From: Octopus sinensis
Taxonomy: Eukaryota
Reading direction: 5' to 3'
Length of the DNA: 64,000 bases
Assembly (NCBI RefSeq): GCF_006345805.1
Contig: NC_043014.1
Span: 44,950,001-45,014,000 of the forward strand
Shown: positions 14,998-63,766 of the stretch, piece by piece
How positions within the stretch are numbered: the first letter of the stretch is position 1
Layout: each line of letters opens with the position of its first letter
Position numbers and translations under genes: made by a program
Notes under the pieces: generated by a model
The model's input: the letters and a program-made list of their open reading frames with translations, nothing else
The model's database searches: none
Told to the model about the DNA's origin: nothing

Positions 14998-15031
<34 letters not shown>

Positions 15032-16454: not shown

Positions 16455-16489
<35 letters not shown>

Positions 16490-34984: not shown

Positions 34985-37900
34985 ATAAAGACTTATTTCC
35001 TTATAATATAGTTCTAGGATACACTGTGTCTGAAAGGAAAAATATCAATGGTCAAGGCTGGAATGCCTTTGATCATAGATTATTTGAAAAAGAATTTTGC
35101 AGCTGATATCCTTCCTGACACTTATAATACTGATCCATTTTGACAAAGCCAAATAGTTTAGGTTTGAGGTCAATCACTTGATTCAATATGAGTATAATAC
35201 CGGTACAAACTTTAATGATCATCTAAAACAGGGATGTAAAACTGTTTACTTAGACTCAAATTTGAAAAGCCCACTGATAAAGCCTTTTAAAAACACAGAT
35301 AAAAATGGGAAAAGTTTGAATTCTATGATCAAAACAGCTATTTTATATAAGTTGCATATCTATGGATTTATAAAATCAAAAATACATTAGTTTTTGCAAC
35401 ACACACACACTCCCACAGATTTTGTGCACTAGCAGTTTGCTCTCTGAACTGAAAAGGTTCCCAACCTCTGCACTGTAGGAACGAAAAGAAATTTGCTCCT
35501 GACATAGTTTGAACTCATGTCTGCAAAAGACATAAACTGGATATTTAATACTGTTACGCATTCCATTTACGACTGCTTCAGCCATCCCCGCCACTATTAA
35601 TAATGTTGCTGTTGCTGGTGAGGTGGAGGAGGAGGATGTTGTTATTGTTGACAGTGATGATAATATTTGTACATTTTCGTAAATGACTCTAAGTTAATTA
35701 TGTGATGTTATTGATTCAAAAAGTAGATAAACGCTATTAAATCTGATATCACGTCTCCGATCTATATTGGTAACCAATACCAATGCTTATATTTCACAAA
35801 ACCGTACACTCTTTAAAAAGTGGAGCAAATTTTAGAAAATTGTGCAGTCTTTAGGAACTTATCAATAGTGTGGTAATGACTGCCAGATATAAATAGGCAA
35901 TTTTAATTTGGCTTCAGAGCAGAATAGTTGAACATCAATGTGGAAATGTTATGTGTGCTTCTGGTGTTGGCAGTTAACAGTGACTTTGTAGCTTACTTGG
36001 TACTTGGGTTCTTTATTTTTTTTTCATTCTTCGTTTGGGGGAAACATTATTTCTTTTTCTCTATCTTCTCAAACTTCTCCAATTTCTCCATCTCCTTTTT
36101 CTACTTCTGTCTTCTAACTCCTATCTTTACTGTAATCTATTTTTTTCACATTCTTCCTGACCTCATAACTGTTGTATTCAGTTGAACCAATGAAAAGGGC
36201 TTCTACATGGCCACTCAAGACTTTAAAAACAACAGCTAAATCACCTTACTTGCCTTTAAAAAGGACACAAGGTATAAGGTACTTCTAGATACAAGGACAA
36301 CTGTGAAGAAAACGATACAATGATTTGACCTGGAATACTTTTGATCATATGTCTGCATGATCAAAACCTAGCTGACTTAAACAACTTTATTCAGTATTTC
36401 AGTCCCAAACTCACAATATATAATTATTCTTTCAAAAAGTATCTAATAGATTACTAGTCTTTGCAAAATTTTTATTCGGTTTAAGAGTTAGATATTGATA
36501 AGTAACACTTAATCCAGCTTTCTTAAAGGTTTAGACATGTATCTCCTCTACAGCAAGACACCATTCTCTGTCCCGCTGTCATACTTTTATCTCTTGTCAC
36601 CTGGCACAAAGGCACCTCCCTCAATTCTACTCCCTGCCTCAGCTGAAGGTTCTTGCCTTGCAAGTTATTTGATGACTTCATTGATGCTGGTATATTGTAA
36701 AAAGCATCTAGTACATTCAGTAAAATGGTTGGCATTAGGAAAGTCATCCAGCCATAGATACCATGCCAACCCCGGTTGGAAAAAAGAGAGATAGAGGAAA
36801 GAGAGATGATGGTGGTGAAGATGTGTCTGGGCATACTCTCAAATTACAAAGAGGTGAATTATATAAGTGGTTATATCTAAATTATTCAAAAAGTATAAGG
36901 TTAATTTTAAAATTTTGTATAGTAAGCCAAACTAACAAGACCCAAACATATCACTAGATATGATACTAGCAGGATTTGAGCTTAAAACAGAAAGAAATGA
37001 AAATAAATTTGAAATTGCATTTAGTTTGCCTTTGGTTTTCATGACTGTCTTAATACACATCCAAAATACAGCAATAAAAGATAAATGTTATATTGGCATT
37101 ATTCATAGCTGTGATTTTGTCAAGGAATAAAACTTTAATGTATAATTTGAATTTGTTGACAGAGTTATGCAATTAGAAAAGTTACTAAAGAAACACAACA
37201 CATTCTAAAAAATGGTCAATTAAGGAAAATTTGGTATCATATGAATTATTAGAATTTTCATTAGAAATTCTCAAATAGTACAGATTAATTGATATAATGA
37301 TGATATTTTATTACTAATTTTTGTTGTTGCTGCAATTATATCTTTAAATTGTCTGTGAGAAAACTAGGTTAATAACATATTTCCGATACAAAATGGAATC
37401 GTTTCCGATAGTCTCGTCACTGAAATGCATTCATAAAGATAAACAGAAGTGATAAAACTAAAGAACTTTTGCAGATAACCATTAATGAACTATTTGGTCA
37501 ATACTATAATTTTCTTTAGGTTTTGATGGTAGAAATTAAGATAGAAGTAAATCAAGACTTCAAGAGTATATTTCAGGAACCTTCACTCTATCCAAAGATA
37601 TCATCAAACTTTGTACTGAATTATATATCTAACTTTCTACATTAATCATAAAAATAGTAATGACAAGGATAATTATACTCTGAGATTGGACGGAGATACT
37701 GAGAGTGCATGAATTACTAGTAATTTATAACATGGTTTTCCATGGCATTCAAACATCTTATAATGTGTAAAAAGTACGTATGTAATTTGATTGAGTTTCC
37801 CAGCTACTTTACAGCATTTTAGAATTCAATAAAGTAACACATGAAAATCTTCAATTGATATTACAATAGGTGACTGAGTCAGCAGAGTGCTACACAATAG

Positions 37901-38197
37901 GCAAGAAGAACATAGGTCATATATCTTGTCGTTAGCGTTGCAGTGTTCCTAGCTAAGACACTTGATTCTTAAATAACAAAGTCAAGCATTAGAGAAAAGA
38001 ACAAAAGGAAATTAGTGAAGGTCTGCTTCAGTAAAAATCAATTCAACAATGTTCAGGAAATTGAATAAGTTTTGGAACCACAAAGAGAAAATAATTCTAA
38101 TATTTGGGGCACAGTTCTTCATGGGAGAAGTGAATTGGGAGATATAAAAGAGAATTACTTCTAATGAAAATATATGTGTGTGTGTGTGTGTGTGTGT

Positions 38198-38490
38198 AGG
38201 CGCAATGGCCCAGTGGTTAAGGCAGCAGACTCGCGGTTGAAGGATCGCAGTTTCGATTCCAAGACCGGGCGTTCTGAGTGTTTATTGAGCCAAAACACCT
38301 AAAGCTTCACGAGGCTCCGGCACGGGGTGGTGGCGATCCCTACTGTACTCTTTTGCCACAACTTTCTCTCATTCTTTCTTCTGTTGGCCTGCTCACTTAG
38401 CCAGCGGGGTTAAAATGATGTGAAGTGCATTGTGACCAGCGATGTGGAGCAACATCTGATAGCCTGGTTGGTCACGGTGGTCATGGTGAT
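38198..38490 (+). mobile_element. tRNA-derived SINE family D; a more diverged tRNA-headed SINE follows at 38551-38850
   Basis: Head GGCGCAATGGCCCAGTGGTTAAGGCAGCAGACTCGCGG...GTTTCGATTCC has A/B-box-like motifs but no closed acceptor stem, and a long non-tRNA body follows. Confidence 0.75.
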
Positions 38491-40585
38491 ATATATATAT
38501 ACATACATATATTTTTTAAACTAATGTATATTGGTATACATTTACATGCAGATGCATGGGCCTAATGGTTAGGGTGTTGCACTCGTGATTGTGAGATCAT
38601 TGTTTCAGTTTCTAGACCGAGTGATGTGATGTGTTCTTGAACAAAACACTTCATCTCACATTGCTCTGCAATCACTTTGACACATGACATGTGGTATACC
38701 ATGCACCTGTTCAGGCAATCTTGATTTGATGGTGGGAGTGAACTAATGTACAGCACATATATTTGATCACTATAAACAAATCATTTGTGTAGGTTGTTCA
38801 GCAAAAGCTGAACACTTATACATCATCTTCGATGGGAGAGTCCATGATGCATTTAATAAAAATTGATAACTTGTCATGAAAACTACTTAATGTATATATT
38901 TACTGTCAATCAAATTAATTTTGAGATCCATGTTTACAGTTCCTTAGGCCATTATCTTAACAAAGATTTGAACTATCAGAAACCCTTATACTTTAGCACA
39001 AAGTTTAAGTCAGAACATTCCAGATACATAAAATAACTTTGTAATATATATCTTCATGGTATAAACATGGCAAAAATATTAAAACAAATATAGTGTCAGT
39101 TGGTGAATAAGTTTGAATCATATTAATTGGATGGATGGATGGATGGTTTATTTACAGAGAGGCTTCAAAACATTGGACTATACTAATAAATTTTCACAAT
39201 CTTAAGATTACTAATCTAATTTTGTTATATCCATTTCTGATGTCTATATATGAAACATAGAAACACTTAACAGTTCTATACCATGTTGATATCGGTTAGC
39301 AATTTAGAAGAAATATTTGGAAAAAGATTATGCATATTTTATAAGATATGTCTTAGTTTCAGGATATTTCAAAATATAGGATTTCCTTATCATGGCATGC
39401 AGTAACTGTGGGAGGTTTGATAGTTGTTTCAAATAACAAAATTGGATTTCAAGAATCGTAAACCAATTCTTAGCACAGTTGAAAGTGATATTTTCTTATA
39501 CATTATGATGTAAAGAATGTCTTTCTAACAATTAAAGTTTAACACGGTTGTTTTGTATCATTTCTGACTTGCAATCTCTCTTTAATATTTGATGATGCTA
39601 CAACACAGAACCATTTTAAATTCAATCATAGCATCTGAAAGTGTTTGACAAATACTTTAAATTAAGTTATCTTTAGCAATCATGTAATGTGTTTTTATAA
39701 TTGTTCCTTGAAATAATTTCATGAAAGTGCTTAAAATATAAAATATTTTAAAGTGATTTATTATGATCAATATCTTCGGAACTGTTTATGTAATATTGAG
39801 ATTAAATTAGATTGTAGAGTTGCTTCAGAAATAAAGTGAATATTTAACAATTGAATTTCATAATTCGTTGTTCAAATCCCCCAAATTCTGTGGTTTTCAT
39901 TAAGTTAGTAGCCATAATATACTGTAGTTTAGCAGACTGACTATACCACTTCCTCTTCAAGAAGGCTGTTCAGGCTTCAGTGAACATACAATGAAGCCAA
40001 AATAATTACTTTGAAGAAATAAAAATATTAATCCATTACATTTGCTTGAACCTCAGACTACTTACAAATGTGTAAGCAAAAATATAATATTGTAATTTGG
40101 GTTAATAGTCTAATATTCTTGTTTCTAACCTTTGTAACATATGTAGTTTATTTTGGAGAAAAAAGCCCAAACACCAAACAAACATAAACTACTTTATGTG
40201 AAACCCAATAATAATCAATGTTGTAAAATAGAAAGTTTTCAGTATGTGTTATCCTTATTACTGATATGTTTTCTGTAAACTATAGATTTTTTTCCTTAAA
40301 TAAATAATAAAAAAAAAAGTATTTATTGTTCAATGTTTTATTAAGTGTCTATTTAGAGTGAAAACAGTTATAAATGGAATGTTTTTTCTTGGTGGAGTCA
40401 CAGTTTGAGATTCATTTAGACTGTTTTAGACAAAACATGTCTGCCAATCTTTATCTCGCTGTCTCACGTACACAAAACATTTTCTGAAAATCATGCTAAC
40501 TACAAATAAGTTAATCAACATTTTGTTGTCAGAAATCCAATGAAAAATGGCTGGAATAATTATGCATTCTCTAAACCATTTCCTA

Positions 40586-40796
40586 ATATACACATTGTCA
40601 TCCATCAAATTTCAAATCCACAAGTAGGTTACATGTCAGCATAATAAAAAAATGATTCTATATTATAATGACTGAACTAAAAGTAAGAAATATTGATTTA
40701 CTTAAATACTAAGGGAACAAACCAAAACAATTTTTTATTATGCTGACATGTAACCTACTTGTGGATTTGAAATTTGATGGATGACAATGTGTATAT
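40586..40796. repeat. Perfect 66-bp inverted repeat with 79-bp spacer
   Basis: 40586-40651 is the exact reverse complement of 40731-40796. Confidence 0.95.
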
Positions 40797-40982
40797 AAGG
40801 AATATTTCTGGGAAGAGGGTATTTTCAAGTTAAAGGAAAGATGGAAACACATTGTGCAAATGCTTCATATTTGATTGCTTAAAAATGTAATGGCAAGTAT
40901 TTATTGACCTTTTTCTTTTCTTTAAAAATCGGCATGAACTTTCCGGACAACCCAATATTATTTTTTTATTATTTATTATATT

Positions 40983-41099
40983 AGACCTGATGAGTGACTA
41001 TGTTTTTAAATAGAATTAATTTTAGATCGATTTAATTTTAAATCGAATTGATTTTATTATTATCTATTTGAAAATATAGTCATGAAACATGTGTAGTCT
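40983..41099 (+). ncRNA. Type I hammerhead ribozyme-like motif with long stem II
   Basis: Stem I AGAC/GTCT; core CTGATGA (40987-40993); stem II GTGACTAT...ATAGTCAT extended by TTTTAAATAGA/TCTATTTGAAA; then GAAA-C-ATGT-G-TA, with predicted cleavage after 41095. Confidence 0.7.
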
Positions 41100-41227
41100 T
41101 TTTACTACTATTTACTATTTATTGTACTTTATTGATTTTTAGAATAAGGTTTTTATAGTATATGTTTTCTATATGGTGTGAATAACATCATTCATTATTG
41201 AATTGTTTAATAGAGGTTTTTCTCTAA

Positions 41228-41272
<45 letters not shown>

Positions 41273-41549
41273 AATATATAAAAACACTACACTCATTATT
41301 ATATTAGGAGATAGTAACATATAATAACAGTTGTAATAATGAGTACAATTTTAAAAAGAAAAAGAAAAGAGCAAATGCCAAGATAAACATTGAAAAAAAT
41401 GAAAAATACCAACAATAGAAATAACCCCTGAACACAATATTTGAGCCAATGATAGAGCCTCTGTACAGTAATTTGACTAGCTAGAAATGGAAGCCAAATC
41501 TTCCTTAAATCACATCCTGCCATCATCAGCAGCATCACCACCACCATGA

Positions 41550-41810
41550 CCATCACCACCACCACCACCATCATAATTTAACGTCCATTGTCCATGCTAG
41601 TGTGGATTGGATGGTTTGACCAGGGCTGGCAAGCCAGAAGGCTGCACCAGACTCCGGTCTGATTTGACATGGTTTCTATGAGTGGATGCCCTTCCTAACA
41701 CCAACTACTCTGAGAGTGTAATGGGTGCTTTTATGTGCCATTGGCATGGGTGTCGTTTGTGTGACACCGGTATCTGCCATGAATGTGATTTTGCTTGGCT
41801 TCATGGGTCT
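41550..41810 (-). mobile_element. Diverged family C SINE
   Basis: Reverse-complement core GGATGCCCTTCCTAACACCAAC and tail. Confidence 0.75.
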
Positions 41811-41865
41811 AATGGATCACATGAAAATACACAGGGCAAACAGGGAGAGATAAAAAAGGACACAT

Positions 41866-42098
41866 ATTTCTTTACTACCCACAAGGGGCTAAACACAGAG
41901 GGGACAAACAAGGACAGACAAACGGATTAAGTTGATTATATCGACCCCAGTGCGTAACTGGTACTTAATTTTTCGACCCCGAAAGGATGAAAGGCAAAGT
42001 CGACCTCGGCGGAATTTGAACTCAGAACGTAACAGCAGACGAAATACGGCTACGCATTTCGCCCGGCGTGCTAACGTTTCTGCCAGCTCGCCGCCTTG
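41866..42098 (-). mobile_element. Family B SINE with 15-bp TSD
   Basis: TAAAAAAGGACACAT at 41851-41865 and 42099-42113. Confidence 0.92.
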
Positions 42099-43021
42099 TA
42101 AAAAAGGACACATTGCTAATGTAGTCCTGGTTACTCCTGTAGCTGTAAAGGCCATTAATCATAAATCTGATCAGGGTTGATGACTGCAACAAGCATCGAA
42201 TGTTACATGTATAGTGAAAACAGATAGGAAAGAATTCAAGTTAATAGAAAGAAAAGACACAGCCCATGGGTACCCTACACTGATGGTATCCACAGACTGT
42301 AACTTATATAAAATACAAGTGATGAAATGTTAACAATGGAAGGCAAAGACTAGAAGAAGCTGGAAAGAAGGAAAATGAAAAGAAGCAGTAACAAAAGTCC
42401 ATGGATGTAATGAAAAAATGTGTGGAATTTGACATTGTTAGGAGAAATAATCTGATTATATCCTATAAAGGGGTATACAGTAAAAATAAGTGTTTTGCTT
42501 GTAAAATATGACCACCCTAGTAAACTTTACTTGTCAGCACATATTTTCTTTTCCCAAATCACTAATTTCCTCAGGTTCTACTATTTCATTTATAGATATC
42601 AATTTTACCAATAGATTCTACATGAATGCTGTGTCAAGTTTCATCTTTGAAGACAAATATTTCCTTAATTTTTCTGCAAACTTCTCCCTGTGTATGTGTG
42701 TGTGTGAGTGTGTGTGTGCATGCGTGTTCATGTGTGTGTATGTAAAATATTTAGGCACCAACAGACTTTAATGGAAGACTTGAAATTCTGTATATATTAG
42801 TGGTGGTGGTGGTGGTGGCAGCATGATTGTCATTATCATCCCTATTTTTACATTCCCTTTCCCATGCTGGTTAGAAGGGACTTTAAGGATGTGTTTTACC
42901 ACCGGCTGCCCTTCCTGATGCCAATCTTTTTAATTACATCATATGATACACATGTATATGGTGTAACTATTTCAAAACTGGGATATACAGAAGTTATACA
43001 TGTGTGTGTATATTATATATA

Positions 43022-43272
43022 TGGCACGTAAAAAACACCATTTGAGCATGGCCATTGCCAGTACTGTCTAACTGGCTCTCATGCCAGTGGCACATAAAAG
43101 CACCCACTACACTCTCGGAGTGGTTGGCATTAGGAAAGGCATCCAGCTGTAGAAACTCTGCCAGATCAGATTGGAGCCTGGTGCAGCCATCTGGTTCGCC
43201 AGCCCTCAGTCAAATCGTCCAACCCATGCTAGCAAGGAAAGTGGACATTAAACGATGTTGATGATGATAATG
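43022..43272 (+). mobile_element. SINE family C
   Basis: Core and tail match the other copies. Another copy is at 46079-46357. Confidence 0.85.
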
Positions 43273-43294
43273 ACATATATATATATATCTATAG

Positions 43295-43326
<32 letters not shown>

Positions 43327-43539
43327 ATATAGTGCACAATACAGTATCAATCAGGACTGAAATATATTTGGGTGAAACAAATGTTAACACATTTTTTTTT
43401 ATGCTTTTGATGTATGAAGAAAGAGTGGGAGAAGTGTTCTGTATGTGTACAGGTATGAGCAAATGATAATATTTGATGTTTTGTATAATCATCATTAACA
43501 TTATTGTCACACATATTTCTCTCTGTTTGCATGAGTTGG

Positions 43540-44000
43540 TTGGCTGGGCCTTCCCAGGCACCTTGTGAGTTTCAGCCTTTTGAAAATAGCTTTCACAACT
43601 TCTTCATATGTATTCCTTGGGTCACCGCTTTCATAAGATCCTTCCACTTGGCTCACTTGACACCTATTTATGCAGCTGTTATTGTCAATATTCAGCACAT
43701 ATTCATTCATACCAGCACAGTCTTCTCTCTTGAACACTATTTTTGATTCCTTCTCTACCTAGTTTTGTTATAAGCTAATTTTCGCTGTTATTCATGCACA
43801 CATGAATCACACATCACACATCCAATGGAGCATGTTTACCTCATTTCTTCCCAGCCTCCATAAATCCTCTTCATGTATACACATCACACAGTCTGCTCCT
43901 CAAATTGGAGTAAGAACCTTGTTTCATAATGGCAGAAATAATAGCTCTCTGAACTTTATCCATGCCATTCTTACTTTTGGCTAGTATGTCCTGTACACTG
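43540..44000 (-). pseudogene. Decayed 3' part of an RTE-type LINE ORF (second copy at 44743-45203)
   Basis: Minus translations KVRMAWIKFRELL..., EEDLWRLGRNEVNMLHWMC..., NSCINRCQVSQVEGSYESGDPRNTYEEVVK resemble the RTE C-terminus (GRPRKTW). Confidence 0.75.
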
Positions 44001-44309
44001 TTAAATAGGTTTCCTAGGTAACAGCTTCAAAACTACTTTTAAAGAACCCTCTTAACATCTAAAAGAATTATTTTGATTGAAACTCTTACTGCTAAGTACT
44101 CTTTTGCATAAACTAGTCTATAAATTAAAACTGACCTCAAAAAGACATAAAAATCAGTAACAGGCAGGGTCTTCTTGATAATTTTAGTAACTTCGAAGCT
44201 GAGATAGAGACACCATGTTCTTTGTCTATCTCCTTAACTTCTTGGAGATTTTAGGTATAATCATACTAATGTGTCCATCTGTTTTAATTTAATTAAATTC
44301 TATGTGTTT

Positions 44310-44397
44310 GTGCAGCTGAAGATTGCTCTACATTTTAAATTGATGTAATGATTGCATTTTCAATTAAATGGAGTTGCATGAAACGATTGTACTGTAC
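44310..44397 (+). ncRNA. Type I hammerhead ribozyme-like motif, copy 1 in the tandem duplication
   Basis: Stem I GTGCAG/CTGTAC; CTGAAGA at 44316-44322; interrupted stem II (TGC/GCA, CTC/GAG, CATTT/AAATG, AATTGA/TCAATT); GAAA-C-GATT-G-TA, with predicted cleavage after 44391. Confidence 0.7.
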
Positions 44398-44437
44398 TTC
44401 TTGATATCCTTGTTGCTTATTTTGATTATATATATAT

Positions 44438-44529
<92 letters not shown>

Positions 44530-45512
44530 ATATAGTGCACAATACAGTATCAATCAGGACTGAAATATATTTGGGTGAAACAAATGTTAACACATTTTTT
44601 TTTATGCTTTTGATGTATGAAGAAAGAGTGGGAGAAGTCTTCTGTATGTGTACAGGTATGAGCAAATGATAATATTTGATGTTTTGTATAATCATCATTA
44701 ACATTATTGTCACACATATTTCTCTCTGTTTGCATGAGTTGGTTGGCTGGGCCTTCCCAGGCACCTTGTGAGTTTCAGCCTTTTGAAAATAGCTTTCACA
44801 ACTTCTTCATATGTATTCCTTGAGTCACCGCTTTCATAAGATCCTTCCACTTGGCTCACTTGACACCTATTTATGCAGCTGTTATTGTCAATATTCAGCA
44901 CATATTCATTCATACCAGCACAGTCTTCTCTCTTGAACACTATTTTTGATTCCTTCTCAACCTAGTTTTGTTATAAGCTAATTTTCGCTGTTATTCATGC
45001 ACACATGAATCACACATCACACATCCAATGGAGCATGTTTACCTCATTTCTTCCCAGCCTCCATAAATCCTCTTCATGTATACACATCACACAGTCTGCT
45101 CCTCAAATTGGAGTAAGAACCTTGTTTCATAATGGCAGAAATAATAGCTCTCTGAACTTTATCCATGCCATTCTTACTTTTGGCTAGTATGTCCTGTACA
45201 CTGTTAAATAGGTTTCCTAGGTAACAGCTTCAAAACTACTTTTAAAGAACCCTCTTAACATCTAAAAGAATTATTTTGATTGAAACTCTTACTGCTAAGT
45301 ACTCTTTTGCATAAACTAGTCTATAAATTAAAACTGACCTCAAAAAGACATAAAAATCAGTAACAGGCAGGGTCTTCTTGATAATTTTAGTAACTTCGAA
45401 GCTGAGATAGAGACACCATGTTCTTTGTCTATCTCCTTAACTTCTTGGAGATTTTAGGTATAATCATACTAATGTGTCCATCTGTTCTAATTTAATTAAA
45501 TTCTATGTGTTT

Positions 45513-45600
45513 GTGCAGCTGAAGATTGCTCTACATTTTAAATTGATGTAATGATTGCATTTTCAATTAAATGGAGTTGCATGAAACGATTGTACTGTAC
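45513..45600 (+). ncRNA. Type I hammerhead ribozyme-like motif, copy 2 in the tandem duplication
   Basis: Identical to 44310-44397; predicted cleavage after 45594. Confidence 0.7.
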
Positions 45601-45629
45601 TTCTTGATATCCTTGTTGCTTATTTTGAT

Positions 45630-45691
<62 letters not shown>

Positions 45692-45877
45692 TAATTGCTT
45701 CACCAGCAGTATATTGGATAACTGATATCCCATAGTGGGTTACCCTCATAACCCCTATCTTACTTTGTATATATATATCTATATACCAACTCACTTGGTG
45801 CTTCTAAGTTTATTTATAAAAAATGTCCTCATTCCAAAAGATATTATTTAGCATAATAAAAGAAGGTATTTGTTGTC

Positions 45878-45960
45878 AGGGGTTGCTTAGCTTAATGGTA
45901 CAGGGCACTCAGCTGGAATTTGAGAGGGAGAGGGTTTGATTCCCTCTAGTGGCTCGCTAG
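45878..45960 (+). mobile_element. Degenerate tRNA-like SINE head between ~30-bp direct repeats
   Basis: TAGCTTAATGG (A-box-like) and GGTTTGATTCC (B-box-like). Flanked at a distance by CCARCTCACT..TGCTTCTAAGTTTATTTAT at ~45787 and ~46038. Confidence 0.45.
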
Positions 45961-46529
45961 TCACTTTTTCCTATCTTCTAAGGGTATTTAACCGATCCTA
46001 TTTTGCATTTGAGGTTTACTTCATTTTCTGTAAAATACCAGCTCACTCAATGCTTCTAAGTTTATTTATTATATATATGGCCGTTGCCAGCCTCACCTGG
46101 CCCCCGTGCCGGTGGCACGTAAAAAGCACCATCCGTCTGTGGCCGTTGGCAGCCTCGCCCGGCACCTGTGCCGGTGGCATGTAAAAAGCACCCACTACAC
46201 TCATGGAGTTGTTGGCGTTAGGAAGGGCATCCAGCTGTAGAAACATTGCCAGATCAGACTGGGCCTGGTGCAGCCTTCTGGCTTCCCAGACCCCAGTTGA
46301 CCCGTTCAACCCATGCTAGCATGGAAAGCGGATGCTAAATGATGATGATGATGATGATATATATATATGCTTGTGTGTGTGCATATACACATGTACTACA
46401 ATCTATCACAACTGGTTAAATACTGGCCTCTAACAGACAAAGTAAATATACTGGTCTGTGATGAAGTCATATATATATATATATACAACAAAAGAATTTG
46501 ATGCATAAAAATAAAATAAATGTGAATAT

Positions 46530-46800
46530 AGAACTGTATGTCTCCACCACTGAGATCCCACTCTCACTGCACTGCTTGTGTTCCCATTGTATAGCATATG
46601 CCGAGCAAAACTACATCCCAAAGTGTACTGGGATTTTCTCCTCTCTATTGTTAATTACTCCTTTGATATTTGCTATGTTGACCTTTAAGGTCTTTGGAAT
46701 TCTATATCATTCTTTTAAGCTGAGGACTTTCTCCTCAACTCTTCAACAGAATGTACAATGAGAACCAGGTCACCATCCTGTATAAAGTTCTCATGTTTTC
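46530..46800 (-). pseudogene. Decayed RTE-type LINE RT fragment
   Basis: Minus translation ENFIQDGDLVLIVHSVEELRRKSSA*KNDIEF.DLKVNIANIK resembles ELLYADDLVL...GLKVNxxKTK. Confidence 0.7.
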
Positions 46801-47935
46801 CCATTTCTGAACTCCTCTTTTATTACACTTTTGCATTGAAGTTTAAATATTATTTATTCAAGGGTGCTTAATTTCTATAAATACTACCTAAACTTGTTCT
46901 AACACTGAAAATTAAATATCTCTTTCATATACATTCTTAGTTATAGCTTATGCCGGTGAGGAAAGATTTAATCCATATTGTTAGTACATATACGTACATT
47001 TTTATGTGTGCCTTATATAGGAGTTTAATGTAGGGTTTTGGGTAAAGTATATATGTTTACATGCTATAACTAAGGAGGACATTTAGATGCTAGATATTTG
47101 AAACTGGTATGATACTGAGATAGTGTATCAGTTTCAAAGCTAGAATTAAGTAGTAAGTACACCCATATCACTTTCTGAAAAGAAGAAAATTTAGATAACT
47201 TATGATCAAGAAATAGTGATGAAATGATTGGATAGTGATAACTCCTTCTAAATCTGATTAATGTCATCTGTGCATCTAGCATACTTATCACACACACACA
47301 CACACAACACACACACAACACAAACACACAACACACACACACACACACACAGATTTATTTATTGTGCTCCTAATATTATTGGGCATGAAATTGTCTAACA
47401 TTTCTGACATACATATCAAACAGTCCACCTCCAACCATTCATTTTATTATATAGATATACGCACACACATAACAGTATTGTATCGAAATGATTGGTTTGA
47501 CATGTAGGCAGTATTTAATCAAATATTTAGAAGCAAAAATAAAAGCTGTATTAGGAAATTACAATACTACTTACTAAAATGTCATAGACACACTTAGCAA
47601 AACAAATGTTTTCAAACTAAATTTGTTGTGAAAAGCTAAGATATAAAAATCAATTATATTCAGATACATATACAGTTAGTACACTGAATTTGGCACACAG
47701 AAAAACACAGAGATCAAACACAAACAAGCAATGAAATGCGTATTAGTGGTTTAGTTGTTACTTAAAAGCAAGAGTTGAGTAGCTACTTTTAAACAACTAG
47801 TTGTATTGTTGAAGGCTTTTCAAGCTGAGATTAATATTTGAAGCAGATTGTTGAAAGATTATGCTTTTGGAAAGAACACTTCAAAAAGCAGTTTGGTAAA
47901 TAAGGCTGTGAGAGGGCTGGAGCTCAAGCATGGGA

Positions 47936-48025
47936 TCACACTTTTACCTTCATTGTCTTGATCTTTTTACGTGTAAGGTGACCTCGTATGCCAGCTTGAA
48001 TCTTTGTAGCAGCATTCGTTTTCAT
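47936..48025 (-). CDS. Short IQ-motif coding exon MKTNAATKIQAGIRGHLTRKKIKTMK(VKV*)
   Basis: Canonical IQ motif close to GAP-43 AATKIQASFRGHITRKKLK. Preceded by an acceptor-like ...CCCTGATATTGCTTAG. It either ends at TGA (47936-47938) or splices at AAG|GTAAAA after 47948 (78-nt phase-0 exon). Confidence 0.8.
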   Translation of the reverse strand: MKTNAATKIQAGIRGHLTRKKIKTMKVKV

Positions 48026-48470
48026 CTAAGCAATATCAGGGTAACGTGAGTACATTTGAGAACAGTTTCATTGTTTTAAAATGACATCTTAAACAATGAA
48101 TGGCTTTGAAATAATGGGAAATTTGACATAGGAACAAAATAAGAAAATGGACAAAGAAAGTATTTCACAATTATAAAAGTTTGAAGTTCATTTTGACAAG
48201 CACTAGGACAAAAGAAAGGCAAAATAACAGCCAAAGGTAAATGTCACTATAGACATAATAATTTATAACTTACACAATTGTATTTCATGAGGTTGATAAG
48301 TTAAATGATATAAAAGAATAAAATATTTATACAAACTCAATGAAAATATGCAGTGTGTGACAGTCCTCCATTCAAAATGATGAACAGAGGAATAAGTTGT
48401 TGTAGTATAGAAGCAAAAAAATTCAAGTGGCAAATGAAATTTTACTGCTACTGGTAGCAGAGATGAGATT

Positions 48471-48485
48471 GTTGCCATGAGAAAC
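48471..48485. promoter_or_regulatory. Candidate RFX X-box-like motif
   Basis: GTTGCCATGAGAAAC, ~450 bp upstream (minus sense) of the IQ exon. Motif match only. Confidence 0.25.
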
Positions 48486-50069
48486 AGAAAATTTATTATA
48501 AAACCTTTAAGCCGTAATGGAAAATGGAAATGTTTACAAATAAAATATTTTACAGTAACTGGCTACAAACAAACAATTAAAGAAATTGACATGTGAAATA
48601 TTGGAATTTTGACCAATGGATCAATGATCTGAAATGAAATTTTAAACAATGGAGATTGATTTGCAGTTGTACAAGATGGTTTATGTAGGAACTACAAAGC
48701 TATCTCTCTCACAGTTTTGAACTATCTTTACTCTGTTGATCTTCAACATCAGAAACTTGTGACATGACATTACACTGACACTGTGAACCTAACTAAATAC
48801 AGTACTGCTATTTATTTTATCAATCCTACAAGGATGAAAGGTAAATTCAATCTCAGACAGAAGACTTAGTCCAAATGCTCATATCGGAATGAACTTCTGG
48901 TGGTGGTGGTGCTAAACAAAGTGATGTGTTGTCTATCATCCAGTGTCAATGTAATGACATTCCACAGGTTTCTGATGGAGGTGAGAGATCTAATCCTCCA
49001 TAGTTTGTTCAGCCCCCCACCCTAGTTTGTAGCTTGCATCACAGTTTCTGTAGAAGGAGCCATTATTCAACCAATGAACAACAATATACCAACATGGAAC
49101 AACACAATCCAGTGTCAACTTAATAGGTTAATGAATTAAATATATTTTTATAATGTCCTCCTTCTCCATCAATTTATCGACACTCCACAGGTCGCTTGTA
49201 TTAAACTATTAGATGTAGGAATATAGTTGTATTAAAAAAAAAATATTTGAAGCAAGAATCAATACACACGGAAGGAGCATGATGACTTCAATGCTTTCTG
49301 AGAGTTAATTTGCCAAGCTGAATGCTATTCAATCTAAAGTATGTTTCATTTTGTATAATTTTAGAGAGTTTATTTATTAATTTGTTCATATTTTTTTTTC
49401 AGTAATCTGTGTTATTTCCGGCGTAGTTTAACTGCTGTGAATTTTCTCTGCTATTTCCTCCACCTTAGATGTTCACAAAGCTTTTTAATGAAAATTTGCA
49501 TAACTTACACTCTTACAATATATAGATAGATACTAGTGAATGCTCAAGGCATTGAACTATTTTGGAAAGAAGAAAAAAAAACAAAACAATTGCATTGGAA
49601 TGGTAATATCTAACAAACAGTAAAACAGCTGCTACAAAAGGAAGAAACTTATTAAAGTAAAAAAAAAAAAATGAAATAAAGTGTTTATATTATATTTTAT
49701 TTGTATTAAAAGTTTTATTACATATATTTTATGCATGATAGTGATCCTATTAAATATTTCTGTGAGAGTGTATGTAGGAACACATCCTCAGTCTGTGTGT
49801 GTGTGTGTGTGTGTATACACAAACACACAAAAAGATGAATCAAAGTAATGCAAATAAAAATTGCGTTACTTTTTGACTCACCCTTGTATGTGGATGTATG
49901 TATATACAATATATACACACATACATACATGCATGTATGACGATAAGCAAGCACGCAAATACACACATGCAATAATTTTCCATAAAATTGTTCTGTCTGC
50001 ATCTATACGAAAATGTGCATTAAATCTCAATTATTATATAAATTAATGTATGCATTTGTTTACACATAT

Positions 50070-50105
<36 letters not shown>

Positions 50106-50480
50106 AAACACACACATCATTAAATGTCTACATGTATACATATTCATACATGAATACATTTATGTAGATCTATTGATAAATATATAAACTAATGCAAATT
50201 GGATGCTCACACTCTTCCAGTATGGCGTATGCATGTTGTGTGAAGAATATCGGCACATTGATAATTTAATATTTCTATTCATGTAACTAGAGCATTATTT
50301 ATATGTATCTTAATGTACACCATACATATACACACTTAAATGAAGATAGCATCTTTAGAAAATTCAAATCCGAATGGACATATACATCTTTACTTGTGAA
50401 CATATAATACATGCATATCTACATAAACTCATTACCTAAACAGCTTTTTATGACTATATACTAACATGTATATATATATT

Positions 50481-50519
<39 letters not shown>

Positions 50520-52609
50520 TGATAAACTGAAAGAGAGAGAGAGAGAGAGAGAGATTAGAGACAGAAAAAGCAGGAGAGATATCCATAGTTATCTAGGTGT
50601 GCCTAATTTCATGCAGAACAAGATTTGTTTCTGCAAGAAATAAGCCAAATAAAAATGAAAATATATTTTACCTAGGAGTGAAAAACAGCTCTGAAAAATC
50701 ATTTAAAATATCAATGAGAGCTTCAGTAGAAATAAATAATTAGAATTGTTTCATTCTTGTCAATGCTGTGTCAGTTAACAGTAATAAACTTTATGTTAAT
50801 ATTACTACTATTATTATTATTTGATAGTAGCATATCTGCTTCCAAGTGTTAGCTTGCTATGACAACATTATAGCATCGTGGGAGGATAGACTGAAAAATC
50901 TTCCTGTTGTTATTGTTATCTTCAGGTTGTCTTGAAGCTCAAGAGGAGCTGTAAGATTTGATGCAAATAAAAATAGTCTGTTAGCAAAATCTCATCAGGC
51001 TGAGTTCATGACAGTTTCAATTGCCATATATATATTCTTTTATTTGTTTCAGTTATTTGACTGTGGCCATGCTGGAACACCAAATATACATTTGCTAATT
51101 TGTAACTACAAGTTATAGCCATAAACAATGATATGGAGAGAGATGCCCTCTACTAAATTAATTTACTGTTGACATACCATATGAAGTAAAATCTTTTTGC
51201 TGTGACATGCAATTTACTATATTCTATAGAATATTTTATTTCTATTTTGATAAAAAGCATATAACATTAATGCTTTTTCCAAGAATATTTAGAATCAAAA
51301 CTAAGTCACGAGCTTGGTTCCCAGTAGCTTACCTTGTTCTCTTATGATTCAGCAAATTGCTATATGAGTGTATTATAACATCAGAATCTTAGCTTAGGGG
51401 AGTAATGATTGGGTCAGGATATATGTCAGCAGTCATCCAGAATTAGCTAATTTCTGTTGTTGACAGGCAGTGATGAAATCCTAATGGCAGTATGGTTAAA
51501 ATGTTCGCTTTACAACCACATAGTTTTAGGTTCAGTCTCACTTCATGACACCTTGGGCATGTGTCTTCTACTGCAGTCCCCAGACCATCCAATGCATTGG
51601 GAGTAAATCTGGTAGACAGAATCTGTACAAAGAACATCATTTGTGTGCAAGTGTGTGTGTATGAGGGCTTGTATTCTGTGATCGCATGAAAAAAAAATCA
51701 CTGAGCTACAGCCAGTGTTCTTAGTCAAAATAAAAATCATCTGGTAGCCGTGTGTGTTCAAAGATTAAAGGAGCAAAAATCCTCTCACTTGAAATGACAT
51801 TAAGGATTAGTGGTAGGAATAACAACTGGCTATAAAACACCGCCTCAGGATTATGTATACATCTAACGAATGCTAGCAAGAAATAACAAATGTAAAAAGA
51901 ATGAACAATAATATATATAATTGTCATCATCATTTTACATATACTTTCTGTGCTAGACTGGTTTGGAAGATACACCATGAACTAAAAAACTTTTTAGTTC
52001 ATTAACAGGCATTTAATGAAGTTCAAAGTAATAGATATCTATATTAAATCAAAAGGTTAACCCATAGGAAAAAAATTATAGGAAAATAAAAAAAAAAACA
52101 TCCAGTACATATTAGGACAGAATTGAGAAACAAAACTTTTCAGTTATTCCTTATCCAGGGTTAAAAACTTAAAGTAAAAGTGATTAAAATAAAAATTTAC
52201 TTTATTCGAAAAATAATATGCTCTAGCCTGCAGCATCATTCTCTAAAATAATATATTTCATACAGCATTCCAAGTTGTATGGGTCTGGTTTAGACAGATG
52301 GCAATGTTCTACACATGTACACATACAAAGTCACATAAACATACATTGAAACATATACAATTTTTTTTGGTATATAAATTTTACAAGACTACCACTATTG
52401 TTACATTCATCATTAATATATATTTTAACAAATGTTGTATTATGCCACTGAACTGACATCACCCCTACTGCTGCCACAGCCACCATCATTATCACCATAA
52501 TCATTATTCCATATAATAGTGGTGATAGTACAAAATCAAAATGAATGACAGCATGCCATTCAGTTAGGTTTTCTACCATTATGACCATGAGGTCTAATAA
52601 TCTTGAATC

Positions 52610-52940
52610 TGAACATTTATTCCAATATCTTCATTGTCTGACTCAGTGATAATTGCCTTCCATTGTCAATATTTAGTAATTTTTCATTCAGCAGGTATCA
52701 TCCATTTTCATCAGGTGTCCATAACAATATCACTCTCACTCCTCCACATGTCCACAAGCATTTTTAATGACTAACCACTTTCTCAGCTGGTTTTCCATAC
52801 AAGTCAATGTTAAAAATCCAACGGATCAAACATTTTACACATTACTATATCTGTATTTTCTGCAGACAGAAACATTTATACTTGGAATGAGGTAACAATT
52901 TCCTAAACTTCATTCACCTCTTCTTGCTATATTGCAACAC
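52610..52940 (-). pseudogene. Decayed 3' part of an RTE-type LINE
   Basis: Minus translation YGHLMKMDDTC*MKNY*ILTMEG resembles WYGHVMRM...VEG. Confidence 0.6.
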
Positions 52941-52974
52941 CCAACTATCCTAACTACATTTCACATGTTACTTT

Positions 52975-53621
52975 CTCCGTGCTAGCAGGGTGCAAAGAGC
53001 ACCATATGAGCATGATCATTGACAGAGCGGCTAACCAGCTTCCGTGCCAGTAGTACTTAAAGGGCACCATTCGAGCGTGATCGTTACCAGCGTCGCTTTA
53101 CTGGCACATGTGCCAGTGCTAGTAGGGTGCCAAGAGCACCATCCAAGTGTGATCATTGCCAGAGCAGCCAACTGGCTTCTGTGCCAGTGGCACGTAAAAG
53201 GGCACCATTCGAGCGTGATCGTTACCAGCGTCGCCTTACTGGCACTTGTGCCCATGCTAGTAGGGTGCCAAGAGCACCATCCAAGCGTGATCATTGCCAG
53301 AGCAGCCAACTGGCTTCCATACCAGTGGCACGTAAAAGGGCACCATTTGAGCATGATTGTTACCAATGTCGCCTTACTGGCACCTGTGCTGGTGGCATGT
53401 GTAAAAGGATTCAAGCGAGGTCATTGCCAGTACTGCCTGACACGTAAAAAGCACCCACTACACTCTCGGAGGGGTTGGCGTTAGGAAGGGCATCCAGCTG
53501 TAGAAACTCTGCCAAATCAAGACTGGAGCCTGGTGCAGCCATCTGGTGCAGCCAGCCCTCAGTCAAAATCGTCCAAACCATGCTAGCATGGAAAGCGGAC
53601 GTTAAACAATGATGATGATGA
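52975..53621 (+). mobile_element. Family C SINE with ~3 copies of a 128-bp internal unit
   Basis: GCTAGTAGGGTGCCAAGAGCACCATCCAAG recurs at 128-bp spacing (53118, 53256 region), followed by the standard core and tail. Confidence 0.85.
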
Positions 53622-54024
53622 CTTCTGTAATAATTGCCATATCTAATATCTTTGTTACATGTTAATTTCCTAGATATCACATTGCACTTACTGTGTAACT
53701 GCTGCTTGCACTGACTGCTCAGTATAGAGTTTCATGGCAAGACCAATTCTCTAATGGTTTCAATTTTTCTACTCTTAGCTACTAACTAGTGCTGCAGATT
53801 TCCTTGCTTTGACTTTTGGTCTTTAGCTTTTGTACCATTCTTACATTGGAAATATTTTATGTAATTCTTTATGTAATTTAGCAATGGGAACCAATATTCA
53901 CTCCTCCTCAGCTCATAAGTGCTTTCTCAAGAACTACATTGATAAGAAAATGGTTGAGAACACAATTTTTCTTCAAATGTCTTTACTCTGGGTGGTATTT
54001 TCAAATAACATTCGTTGTATTTCA

Positions 54025-54280
54025 TAAATTTTAGTAACTTCTATGCTGAAGTAGAGACAACATGTTCTTTGTCTATCTCCTTAACTTCTTGGAGATTTTA
54101 AACATAATTATACTAATGTGTCCATCTGTTCTAATTTAATTAAATTCTATGTGTTTGTGCAGCTGAAGATTGCTCTGCATTTTAAATTGATGTAATGATT
54201 GCATTGTTCAATTAAATGGAGTTGCATGAAATGATCGAACTGCATTACCTCTGGATATCCTTGTTGCTTATTTTGATTTT
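54025..54280 (+). mobile_element. Third dispersed copy of the hammerhead-bearing repeat, with mutated core
   Basis: Matches 44180-44427. The motif at 54157-54245 reads GTGCAG-CTGAAGA...GAAA-T-GATC-G-AA-CTGCAT, so the conserved U of the cleavage triplet is lost. Confidence 0.8.
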
Positions 54281-54393
54281 AATCACCATACTTTGAAATT
54301 GTATGGATAATACCGTACTAAATTCTGGTGCCTCAACCATATTCATCTGAATCTAAATTTTTGATGAACTCATCTACCATACCCAAAGTATAA

Positions 54394-54427
<34 letters not shown>

Positions 54428-55477
54428 TTGTATATATATTTGTCCCTACTCACCATCACTTGGCAATTGATGATGGTGTGTTTGCGTCCCTGTAACTTAG
54501 TGATTTGGCAAAAAGGAATGATAGAATAAGTACTAGGCCTACAAAGAATAAGACCTGGGGTCAATTTGTTCAACTAAAGGCAGTGCTCCAGTATGGCCAT
54601 AGTCAAATGACTGAAACCAATAAAAGAAAATAAAAGAAAGTTATCATGCTTAACCTGCAACTCCTGGAGGAAGTCATAGGAATGCTCCTGTGTCTTAGGC
54701 ACCTAAAGATGGTGGAGTCCATCCTTCACCAGTTTTTGGCTATAGTTGGTTTCTTTAAGAGAGAGAGAGAGAGGAGGAGGGAATGGGAGAGAGTAAGGGA
54801 GAGAAGAACATGTCTCAGTACTAGACTGGTTCTTTATTTATTGACCCTGAAAAGTTGAAAGGCAAATTTGAACCCAGTAGGATTTGAACTCCGCGCACAA
54901 AGGGCCAGAACGAATACCATAAAACACTGTATTCAATGCTCTATCAAATCTACCAGTTCCCAATGCTTGTCATTCTTATCAATGAACGTCTTTGTCAATC
55001 TCATTCAATTATTCTGTGTGGAATTTCAAATGAACTATTATTGCAGTCCGACCTTCATGAAAGGAAAAAATATATTAATACAACCTTGTTTAATTAACAC
55101 TCTATTGACTTATCTGGTAAAAAAAAGAAAAGAAGAAAGAAATAATTGATATCAATCAATGCAATAATTTACTTTTCAATGTATAGCATCACCGTTTTCA
55201 TGCTAGCATTGATATGATGCAGTTTGTTAAGTAGTTGCTTCAGATGTTTTTACAGTTGAATGTCCTCCTTACAAATCACTCAATAGCAAAACTATGAGTG
55301 AAATTAATAATAACAAATAAAATTATTATTTTTTAAGCAGGGTCATCTGTGTTGTTCAGAGTCCATAGTGAGGTTTGAACTTATGACCATGTTATCATAT
55401 TAATTCTTTCTAACCTTGAAGAAAAGACAAGTTAATTAATTACAACCTTAGTATGTGACTGGTATTTTATTTTATAT

Positions 55478-56284
55478 GTGTAGGAGTGGCTGTGTGGTAA
55501 GTAACTTGCTTACCAACCACATGGTTCTGGGTTCAATCTCACTGCGTGGCACTTTGAGCAAGTGCCTTCTACTATAGCCTCGGGCCGACCAAAGCCTTGT
55601 GAGTGGATTTGGTAGATGGAAACTGAAAGAAGCCTGTCGTATATATGTATATATATATATGTATGTGTGTCTGTGTTTGTCCCTCCAACATCACTTGACA
55701 ACCGATGCTGTTGTGTTTACGTCCCCGTAACTTAGCAAAAGAGATCGATAGAATAACTTAGCAAAAGAGACCGATAGAATAACTTAGCAAAAGAGACCGA
55801 TAGAATAAGTACTAGGCTTACAAAGAATAAGTCCCGGGGTCGATTTGCTCGACTAAAGGCAGTGCTCCAGCACGGCCACAGTCAAGTGACTGAAACAAGT
55901 GAAAGAGTAACCTCAAAAGGATAAAAATAAGTTGAAATCAGCAGAATCTGAACTCAGAATGTAAACAACCAGAAGAAATGTCGTTAAGCGTTTTGTCCGA
56001 CATGCTAATGATTCTGCTAGCTTGCTGCCTCGATAATAATGATAATTATTTATAATATCAGGGCAAGGCTACAAATTTAAGGTGGGGAGGAAAGCAGTTG
56101 ATTATAGTGACCGTGTGCTTGATCAGTACTAATAGAGGGACAGCACCATGGATGTGGTAGAGGAGGAAAAGCTGATTGTATCAATGGAATATGTGACTGG
56201 TACTTTATTCATCAACCCCTAAAAGATAAAAAGCAAAGATAACCATGGCGACACTTAAATACAGAATGTTTTGAGCCATATAAT

Positions 56285-56332
<48 letters not shown>

Positions 56333-57030
56333 CGTAGGAGTAGCTGTGTGGTAAGTAGCTTGCTTACAAACCACATGGATCTGGGTTCATTCCCACTGTG
56401 TGGTCGCTTGACAACCAATGCTGGTGTGTTTATGTCCCCGTAATTTAGCGGTTTGGCAAAAGAAGCCGATAGAATAAGTGCTAGGCTTACAAAGAATAAG
56501 TCCTGGGACCCATTTGCTCGACTAAAGGCAGTGCTCCAGTAAGGCCACAGTCAAATGACTGAAACAATTAAGAGAGTAAAAGAGTAAAACCTTTCTACAA
56601 TAGCCACAAGTCTTGAAATTTTGATCGAGGGGGCTTGTTGATCACATCAACCCCAGTGCTGAAATGGTACTTATTTTATTGACCCCAAAAGTATGAAAGG
56701 CAAAGTTGACCTCAGTGGCATTTGAACTCAGAACATAAAGATGGACGAAATACTGCTAAGCATTTTGCCCGGTGTGCTAATGATTCTGCCAGCTCACCGC
56801 CTTAGCAATAATATTAATAGTTTCAAATTCTGGCACAGGGCCAGCAGTTTTTGAGGGGAGGGGAGGAGAGGTCAATTACATGGACCTCAGCACTTGACTG
56901 GTACTTATTTCATTGACCAACCCAAAAAGGATGAAGGGCAGAGTCAATCTGGGCAGAATTTGAACTCAGAATAGAAAGACAGACAAAATGCCACTAAGCA
57001 TATTGTTTGCCACACTACCAGTTCTACCAA
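55478..57030. mobile_element. SINE cluster: family A (55478-55908, 56331-56586) and family B-like (55910-56030, 56600-56802, 56830-57030)
   Basis: Matches to family consensus motifs. A 3 x 26-bp slippage repeat lies at 55729-55806. Confidence 0.8.
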
Positions 57031-58276
57031 AAAAAAAAAAAAAAAAAAACCATAAGGATTTCATTGTAAGATTGCATAGTTGGAGGTGGGTGATGTGACC
57101 AATATAATTGTTTTCAGCATATCACCACTTGAAGGATGATCCCTAGAAGAAATTGAACTGGAAATGTTTAAATACAGAACAAAATACTGGATTTCTATTA
57201 TTTTTACTACAGTAACTGCAGCTTGAAGGAGGGGATGAGGTTTGGTAGCAGTAGCATCATACTTCAATAAAGATAGATTATTACAGAGATTCATTTAGAA
57301 TTTTGTGATGGGAAATTTAACCATGACAATAACATTTTTTCAACAACAAAACACAAAGCAATAAAGGAAAGAAGGAAATAATAATGCAATAATCTTCTAG
57401 ATCTCTCTCTATTTTTCTTACAGTTTTTTTTATAGAATTTTAATTGTTTACATTGAAACACTTAATCTTAAAGTAAATTGCATTTTTATTGTTGTAATTA
57501 CCACTGTATCTGCAACAGTATTACTAAAAAAATATGATAATTTTACAAGTCTTCCTACTACACACAAAATATAACATTCCAGCAAGCCATTGAAAGAGCT
57601 TCTATGTGATATTCAACATAGAAATAGTAGTCAAATCTTCCTCAAATCACACCTTATAGTCTAAAGAAAAGATACAATATCATCATTTAACATCCATTTT
57701 TCCATGCTTGTATAGAAAAGTGCTGAGACAGATTTTCTATGGCTGAATGCCCTTCCTGTTGCCAACCCTCACCGGTTTTTCAAAGGGAATATTTTTCTAC
57801 AGCTAGATAAGATTTTCATGGAAAAATGGAAACGAACAATCCTGTTTGTATAACAGTGATTTTCATTCACGACCATCATATGTCTCAACAAGGGTATACA
57901 CACACACACACACCACATCATGATGGGCTTCTTTCAGCTTCTGTCTACCAAATCTACTCACAAGGCTTTGGCTGGCCAGGGGCTGTAGTAGAAGATACTT
58001 GCCTAAGATGTCATGCAGTTGGACTGAACCCAAGACCATCTGGTTGGCAAGCAAAGGTTCTTGACCACACAGCCACACCTATGCCTACAGCAAACAAATA
58101 ATACGGTCTGGAACACATAATGTTTGAAAAAACAAATGAGATGGTTATGGCTGGAATAATGTCCATTATCGATCTGCTTGATCAAGTCAAACAAGAACAA
58201 CTGTAGCAGCAACAACAACAATTATTACATCAACAACAACTTTCCTAAACCATGTCTTTATTTAGATTTCTAACCA

Positions 58277-58690
58277 GGCGCAGGAGTGGCTGTGTGGTAA
58301 GTAGCTTGCTAACCAACCACATGGTTGCGGGTTCAGTCCCACTGCGTGGCATCTTGGGCAAGTGTCTTCTACTATAGCCCCAGGCCGACCAATGCCTTGT
58401 GAGTGGATTTGGTAGACGGAAACTGAAAGAAGCCTGTCGTATATATGTATCTATATATATGTATGTGTGTGTGTTTGTGTGTCTGTGTTTGTCCCCCTAG
58501 CATTGCTTGACAACCGATGCTGGTGTGTTTACGTCCCCGTCACTTAGCAGTTCAGCAAAAGAGACCGATAGAATAAGTACTGGGCTTACAAAGAATAAGT
58601 CCCGGGGTCAATTTGCTCGACTAAAGGTGGTGCTCCAGCATGGCCGCAGTCAAATGACTGAAACAAGTAAAAGAGTAAAGAGTAAAGAGA
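58277..58690 (+). mobile_element. Full-length family A SINE
   Basis: tRNA-like head, internal TA/TG tract and (GAGTAAA)n tail. Diverged copies at 32940-33100, 51480-51660, 54410-54630, 57910-58085 and 61580-61970. Confidence 0.9.
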
Positions 58691-59790: not shown

Positions 59791-59795
59791 CACAC

Positions 59796-59841
<46 letters not shown>

Positions 59842-63748: not shown

Positions 63749-63766
63749 CTGATCGTTAGAATTCAT
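63749..63766 (-). CDS. Candidate first coding exon (MNSNDQ) of the IQ gene
   Basis: ATA-ATG AAT TCT AAC GAT CAG|GTAAGA: A at -3, strong donor, phase 0 matching the acceptor at 48025. It is too short to exclude chance. Confidence 0.3.

Follow-up and report, generated by a model that had tools for sequence, protein, structure and literature searches.

The 64,000-nucleotide window of Octopus sinensis DNA analyzed here holds an IQ-encoding micro-exon that very probably belongs to a multi-IQ gene of the Sp17/SPA17 family, as an in-frame internal exon of 78 nt with a likely calmodulin-binding motif, the second (IQ2) of its series. The preliminary description of this locus had proposed instead a hidden microprotein, or an exon of one, of the GAP-43/neurogranin type; the gene is assigned to the Sp17/SPA17 family, and not to GAP-43/neurogranin, because of its RIIa exon and of the best PDB match of the Argonauta orthologue. 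As judged from sequence, the micro-exon and its family assignment, taken on their own, warrant very high confidence.

On the minus strand, positions 48025 to 47936 of the window read MKTNAATKIQAGIRGHLTRKKIKTMKVKV followed by a stop, immediately 3' of gatattgcttAG, and the IQ peptide does lie directly after an acceptor AG (...gcttAG), as had been described. The open frame had been taken to end in VKV and a stop, and to share an MKVK string with the IQ repeats 39 kb away, but the donor AAG/GTAAAA, identical to that of the gene's MGNRVS exon, directly follows codon 26, and contigs splice there. The exon is therefore 48025-47948, the VKV-stop end (47947-47936) is intronic, and so is half of MKVK, the V of which follows necessarily from the GT of a donor in phase 0. 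The elements of this region, in window coordinates, are as follows:

63749..63825, minus strand: exon U, an alternative upstream exon (contig-covered part; its 5' end lies beyond coverage).
48026..63748, minus strand: intron from exon U to the micro-exon, 15,723 nt, within the 52,326-nt intron if splicing is from IQ1.
48026..48027, minus strand: splice acceptor AG, the TAG doubling as an in-frame stop right before the ATG.
47948..48025, minus strand: internal coding exon with IQ2, 78 nt, 26 aa (MKTNAATKIQAGIRGHLTRKKIKTMK), phase 0/0, AG/GT.
47936..47947, minus strand: donor GTAAAA and intron start, encoding VKV-stop only when unspliced.
8721..47947, minus strand: intron from the micro-exon to the His-rich IQ exon, 39,227 nt, from loose contig ends.
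8259..8720, minus strand: His-rich exon with IQ3 and IQ4, 462 nt, phase 0/0, donor AGG/GTAGGC at 8259.

The Pfam IQ profile (PF00612) matches the peptide with 32.3 bits against a cut-off of 20.3 (E 5.7e-8), and the pattern AA..IQ...RG has three occurrences among the window's six reading frames, one at 48 kb and two at 8.4-8.5 kb, and none in 100 base-shuffled windows. The IQ motif at 48025-47948 is real and beyond chance. Its proposed kinship to the repeats 39 kb away also holds: it shares 14/22 and 13/23 residues with the two IQ motifs at 8.4-8.5 kb, and it is spliced to the exon that starts at 8720.

This splicing was read from runs presumed to be RNA and compared as contigs, a form that does not reveal strand, transcription start, level or tissue. 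The narrow stretch around the micro-exon is covered by four runs (X4, X6, X8 and X10), which come from four studies under three species labels. In each of them the contig matches 47947-48027 and then departs from the genome, with the divergence on the 5' side falling at the acceptor 48026..48027. The loose letters at the 3' end equal window 8690-8719 exactly in runs X4, X6 and X8, and are a variant of them in run X10; as this segment opens the exon that follows the AG at 8721, the 3' end of the micro-exon is joined to the IQ exon at 8720, across 39.2 kb, in four of four runs. At the 5' end, run X10 joins the micro-exon to the IQ1 exon ending at G000:C18:45050352, over an intron of 52,326 nt, and the remaining three join it to window 63751-63778, which belongs to exon U. 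Transcription, which the preliminary description had left to be checked, is borne out by spliced contigs in all four presumed-RNA runs over the narrow stretch. A genome search finds the peptide once, at 100%, and a retrocopy as the source of the joined reads is therefore ruled out, no second genomic copy having been found. Two other arrangements were rejected: an alternative last exon, with both in-window exons in phase 0 and reaching a stop, since the exons are joined in series, and separate tandem paralogues, since the RefSeq isoforms map exon by exon on one strand.

The same contigs bear on the possibility that a stand-alone IQ protein of 29 aa (35 aa with exon U), ending in VKV-stop, is made as a minor, neurogranin-like calmodulin buffer when the donor is skipped and the transcript is polyadenylated within the intron. 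The frame is indeed open to the TGA at 47936, the GTAAAA donor is non-consensus and MKVK is in register with IQ3; runs X4 and X10 have contigs of low depth (2.8-2.9) in the intron past the donor, hexamers of poly(A)-signal type are found 0.4-0.6 kb beyond the 3' end of the exon (AATAAA at 47448 and 47363), and runs X1 and X2, both from one study, have only unspliced contigs (47688-48127 and 47895-48108) among the pieces listed. However, the same donor is in use at another exon of the gene, AATAAA is frequent in DNA of 32% GC, and the intronic contig of run X4 overlaps the exon by 5 nt only, so that it does not bridge exon and intron. The X1 and X2 contigs extend into the upstream intron too, and these runs cover 27/30 and 23/30 bins of an 8-kb stretch, as nascent or pre-mRNA, or DNA, would do. 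The exon contig runs unbranched into 8720 in four of four runs, and none of the seven coleoid proteins with the exon ends in VKV. We thus regard such a microprotein as highly improbable, even if the low-depth intronic contigs and the poly(A)-like hexamers suggest that a minor read-through end may exist. A comparable case is that of window 8241-8720: in O. bimaculoides, in Sepia and in unnamed records this exon is called as an ORF of its own that runs into an intronic tail (VGKHET/VGQHEP), which is due to the same read-through artefact or else marks a genuine alternative end.

Several side observations concern the 39-kb intron and the rest of the window. A near-identical direct duplication lies at about 43290-45200, inside the intron, with a spacing of 1203 nt, 98% identity over 300 nt and duplicated ORF text, and tandem units or fragments of an abundant interspersed repeat are found at 20250-20670, 22950-23290, 46040-46330 and 53030-53480. 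Contig depth exceeds 50,000 at 46.1-46.4 kb in four of four runs.

The internal position of the micro-exon agrees with existing annotation, to which it is by no means hidden, as had been supposed. The exon at 8720 led to O. sinensis RefSeq protein XP_029647522.1, automatically named golgin subfamily B member 1 isoform X3, and the 26 residues are present in all four O. sinensis RefSeq isoforms listed in its cluster (XP_029647520/522/523/526); the fifth member, from O. vulgaris, spans the giant first exon only. The 26 residues are followed by D, from the 8720 exon, or by E where that exon is skipped (RefSeq isoform X5), and the seven coleoid proteins with the micro-exon all continue in one of these two ways. 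The earlier proposal of a tiny microprotein or its exon consequently stands as regards a coding IQ exon, but this exon is internal to an annotated gene of about 480 kb, whose database proteins with the micro-exon measure 292-1239 aa. The name Golgin B1 is itself unsupported: Pfam finds IQ only in XP_029647522, and the relatives listed are RIIa/IQ proteins. The micro-exon is already in RefSeq, and the family is already known.

Conservation among coleoids, likewise raised as a check, is high. The peptide is identical at 26/26 residues in O. bimaculoides (XP_052831153), 24/26 in Argonauta (GAB1603184) and 22/26 in Sepia (CAE1229889), and in the same order of species identity amounts to 79, 49 and 49% for the IQ1 exon and 94, 79 and 58% for the His-rich exon. 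The micro-exon is the best conserved of the five segments compared, which, at the level of protein identity, fits purifying selection. A title-level literature search found no publication on the octopus gene, and the supplements of three single-cell atlases (PMC9712504, PMC9839350 and PMC12240821), in which gene ids may differ, gave no match by name.

The gene spans some 480 kb on the minus strand of C18, and its exons outside the window, in C18 coordinates, are as follows:

G000:C18:45379280, minus strand: RIIa exon, starting MSVPFSNTKLRVP (PF02197, 47.3 bits against a cut-off of 22.4).
G000:C18:45218567, minus strand: giant first exon, MGCSLGK start, 851-codon open frame.
G000:C18:45158741-45158687, minus strand: small first exon, MGNRVSRITDGFSRRKKK (MGNRVS..RRKKK).
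C18 45085288 and 45072116, minus strand: linker exons (gene map).
C18 45050480, ending at 45050352, minus strand: IQ1 exon (gene map and run X10 join).
C18 44943681, minus strand: downstream exon (gene map).
C18 44929492, minus strand: IQ5 exon (gene map).
C18 44925652, minus strand: IQ6 exon, with IQ7 in a shifted frame (gene map).
C18 44902701, minus strand: exon (gene map).
C18 44896606, minus strand: early end exon (gene map).

The RIIa exon lies 381 kb upstream of the micro-exon on the same strand. By our reading of the sequence it apparently ends near G000:C18:~45379126 at a GC donor (AAG/GCAAGA) in phase 1, in agreement with the phase of the following exon. The proteins of O. bimaculoides and Argonauta begin with the RIIa domain and proceed through the micro-exon; no join of the RIIa exon to the rest was seen among O. 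sinensis proteins or contigs. The His-rich exon is skipped in RefSeq isoform X5. At the other end of the gene, the last large exon shows a one-base frame switch (C18 ~44925490) relative to O. bimaculoides and Argonauta, which is probably an assembly indel; the O. sinensis RefSeq isoforms end early in ...LKKRLM, and the other frame runs on to a seventh IQ. IQ-type motifs number six in XP_029647520 and seven in XP_052831153.

The top three PDB matches of the Argonauta orthologue are all Sp17 (E 5e-26, 5e-24 and 3e-19), as against E 4e-5 or weaker for PKA-RII, and the single IQ of vertebrate Sp17 falls on the micro-exon IQ in both alignments shown. The nearest ESM Atlas cluster is of RIIa plus IQ composition (0.91), a weak indication by the tool's own caveat. 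With Sp17/SPA17 (sperm surface protein 17, an RIIa domain plus a C-terminal calmodulin-binding IQ; PDB 9fqr_Ic, 8j07_K and 7my4) the octopus gene has in common an N-terminal RIIa domain, a linker and an aligned IQ. Sp17 is described as a three-domain, AKAP-binding protein in PMC11276731 and PMC8339350. Vertebrate Sp17, however, has about 150 aa and one IQ, whereas the octopus gene has up to seven, and adds a coleoid exon rich in His as well as alternative starts lacking RIIa.

Relatives with RIIa and multiple IQs occur in molluscs, an annelid, a hemichordate and cnidarians. Those of Haliotis, Crassostrea, Mytilus, Owenia and Nematostella, automatically named triadin-like, ASPM-homolog and so forth, have the architecture of the octopus gene, including a tandem IQ1/IQ2 pair 23-26 residues apart. 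The coleoids differ from these other invertebrates in a basic His-rich exon with two IQs and in a micro-exon IQ that lacks the acidic DIDLxDP leader, and Octopus further adds the giant acidic first exon and exon U. Among 96 proteins with the Sp17 linker motif, 81 start at the RIIa end, 14 with Met-Gly and one otherwise; six of the Met-Gly starts, in six species, are of the form Met-Gly-x-x-x-Ser with a basic patch.

What stands of the earlier comparison with GAP-43 and neurogranin is a generic IQ motif, of the AATKIQxxxRGH type: it matches the neuromodulin peptide at 16/21 residues (PDB 4e53, E 1e-4), with 4e50 as a second calpacitin hit (E 1.5e-3), but it matches Sp17 about equally well (9fqr, E 1.4e-4) and a multi-IQ radial-spoke protein better, and for this reason the likeness to GAP-43 is generic. 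No similarity to GAP-43/neurogranin was seen outside the IQ, and membership in that family is rejected for an internal exon of a gene of about 480 kb that is spliced onward in four of four runs and lacks the PKC serine. This serine, Ser41 in GAP-43 and Ser36 in neurogranin, switches these proteins off calmodulin, according to PMC3589724; its position is taken by Gly in O. sinensis, O. bimaculoides, Argonauta and Sepia, and at the place of Phe42, through which neuromodulin contacts calmodulin, the motif of the octopods carries Ile. The Gly alone is not decisive against a calpacitin, because teleost neurogranins likewise have Gly at the PKC site, as stated in PMC9415131, and by the same token short octopus forms could act in a calpacitin-like manner without belonging to the group. 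RIIa-less octopus isoforms would resemble calpacitins as low-aromatic, charged IQ carriers, some of them with predicted lipid anchors, but calpacitins are separate small genes with one IQ and the PKC serine, and the octopus exon is internal.

Drosophila igloo has a multi-IQ layout. Together with the arthropod "neuromodulin" it is multi-IQ but without RIIa; the Diaphorina "neuromodulin" carries a DLxDP..AATKIQ unit as in the later IQs of the octopus gene. A passage of PMC9618489 names igloo a calpacitin.

The gene has four alternative starts: RIIa, two Met-Gly starts of lipid-anchor type (MGNRVS and MGCSLGK), which we take to match the myristoylation consensus, and exon U. The giant first exon is acidic and nearly without aromatic residues; it makes up about 835 aa of the RefSeq "golgin" isoforms and stands as a separate gene model (CAI9737864) in O. 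vulgaris. The small first exon is identical to O. vulgaris CAI9737863, and similar Met-Gly-x-x-x-Ser starts with basic residues are seen in two Haliotis species, Mytilus trossulus, Ruditapes and Lymnaea, so that abalone, mussel, clam and pond-snail models also present Met-Gly alternative starts.

Exon U, spliced to the micro-exon in three of the four runs (X4, X6 and X8), contains, in its covered part, one ATG only (63766, context AAAATA-ATG), which shares the frame of the micro-exon and has an in-frame stop 10 codons upstream; the exon encodes MNSNDQ and ends at the donor CAG/GTAAGA. No protein starting MNSNDQ was found among 301 compared, and a representative search with the Sepia protein gave no further cephalopod isoform; because clustering can hide isoforms, exon U is only probably unannotated. 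Combined with those RefSeq tails in which the His-rich exon is retained, it would give isoforms of 226-325 aa, and with the X5 tail one of 117 aa; if translated as predicted, they would be without RIIa or lipid anchor.

Two other readings of exon U have to be considered. It might be an internal, non-productive exon that shifts the frame of long transcripts and yields no short protein. An acceptor-like ttcttAG at 63908-63907 would make it an exon of 158 nt, not a multiple of 3, and its contigs stop near 63825 in low-complexity sequence, with the 5' end outside view. Yet an upstream non-coding exon would use that acceptor as well, the one ATG has a good context and is in frame with the micro-exon, and the depth of exon-U contigs, at 35-45% of that of the micro-exon contig (22.2/64, 41.2/107.7 and 13.5/30.1, a rough measure), is high, in three studies, for a decay substrate; a non-productive exon is thus unlikely. 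Alternatively, exon U might head the main neural product of the gene, a calpacitin-like protein of about 72 aa in which exon U and the micro-exon are followed, with the His-rich exon skipped, by an early stop exon. Such a protein would have one IQ and the size of neurogranin, and each of its junctions is on record: exon U to micro-exon in three runs, micro-exon to C18:44943681 in RefSeq isoform X5, and the C18:44943681 exon to the early end in RefSeq isoform X4. The depth share of exon U also speaks for it, although this is a poor measure by the tool's own warning. Nonetheless, no record has all the junctions on one molecule, and the three exon-U runs splice the micro-exon only to the His-rich exon, implying at least 226 aa; we deem this form quite unlikely as the main product. 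An exon-U start in frame with the micro-exon could, in the reading we prefer, give short RIIa-less calmodulin buffers.

Calmodulin binding is the established role of IQ motifs, which form short basic helices. The micro-exon would supply the second of up to seven, and calmodulin binding by it is probable; by analogy with other IQ motifs, the Ca2+-free form of calmodulin would be favoured. IQ1 and IQ2 are separated by 26 residues in octopus, by 23 in Argonauta and by 25 in both abalone and oyster. Such a distance would suit a helix carrying two calmodulins, and in long isoforms the two motifs likely form one. Through the RIIa docking/dimerisation exon the IQ array would be linked to AKAPs, by analogy with Sp17 in cilia and flagella; the form joined to RIIa is present in O. 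bimaculoides and Argonauta models and presumably exists in O. sinensis. Sp17 is placed in flagella and motile cilia, bound to AKAPs, in PMC8339350 and PMC11276731. The MGNRVS..RRKKK and MGCSLGK starts, the latter with an acidic spacer of about 830 aa, are predicted lipid anchors that may direct lipidation and localisation, and the exon-U form, starting six residues before IQ2, would be translated as a short, unanchored, cytosolic protein. The four starts would thus yield, from a single locus, calmodulin binders of three kinds: docked, membrane-bound and soluble. For the RIIa-less forms, a role as neuronal calmodulin buffers is a tentative proposal, which we hold less likely than not.

A broader reading, which we put forward as speculative and rather doubtful, is that Sp17 genes of invertebrates supply calmodulin buffers in a modular fashion: by means of alternative promoters the AKAP-docking domain would be swapped for a myristoyl/polybasic anchor, or, with exon U, for nothing, to give GAP-43-/neurogranin-like proteins in the cephalopod nervous system in the absence of the GAP-43 and neurogranin genes themselves. 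As part of it, the myristoyl/polybasic-anchor start would have been conserved across abalone, mussel, clam, pond snail and octopus, and vertebrate neurogranin and insect igloo may derive from internal-promoter isoforms of this kind. The idea of such a split-off is prompted by the mouse Nrgn and Spa17 genes, which occupy one locus according to PMC4098794.

The micro-exon itself is ordinary and already annotated. The gain lies in a corrected identity for the gene (Sp17 family, and neither golgin nor GAP-43) and in an apparently unannotated short start, to which the conserved lipid-anchor-type starts of a misnamed Sp17-family gene add a further point. If the RIIa-less isoforms do act as neuronal calmodulin buffers, cephalopods would have obtained a GAP-43/neurogranin-type function from a ciliary gene, and a testable origin would be at hand for neurogranin beside Spa17.
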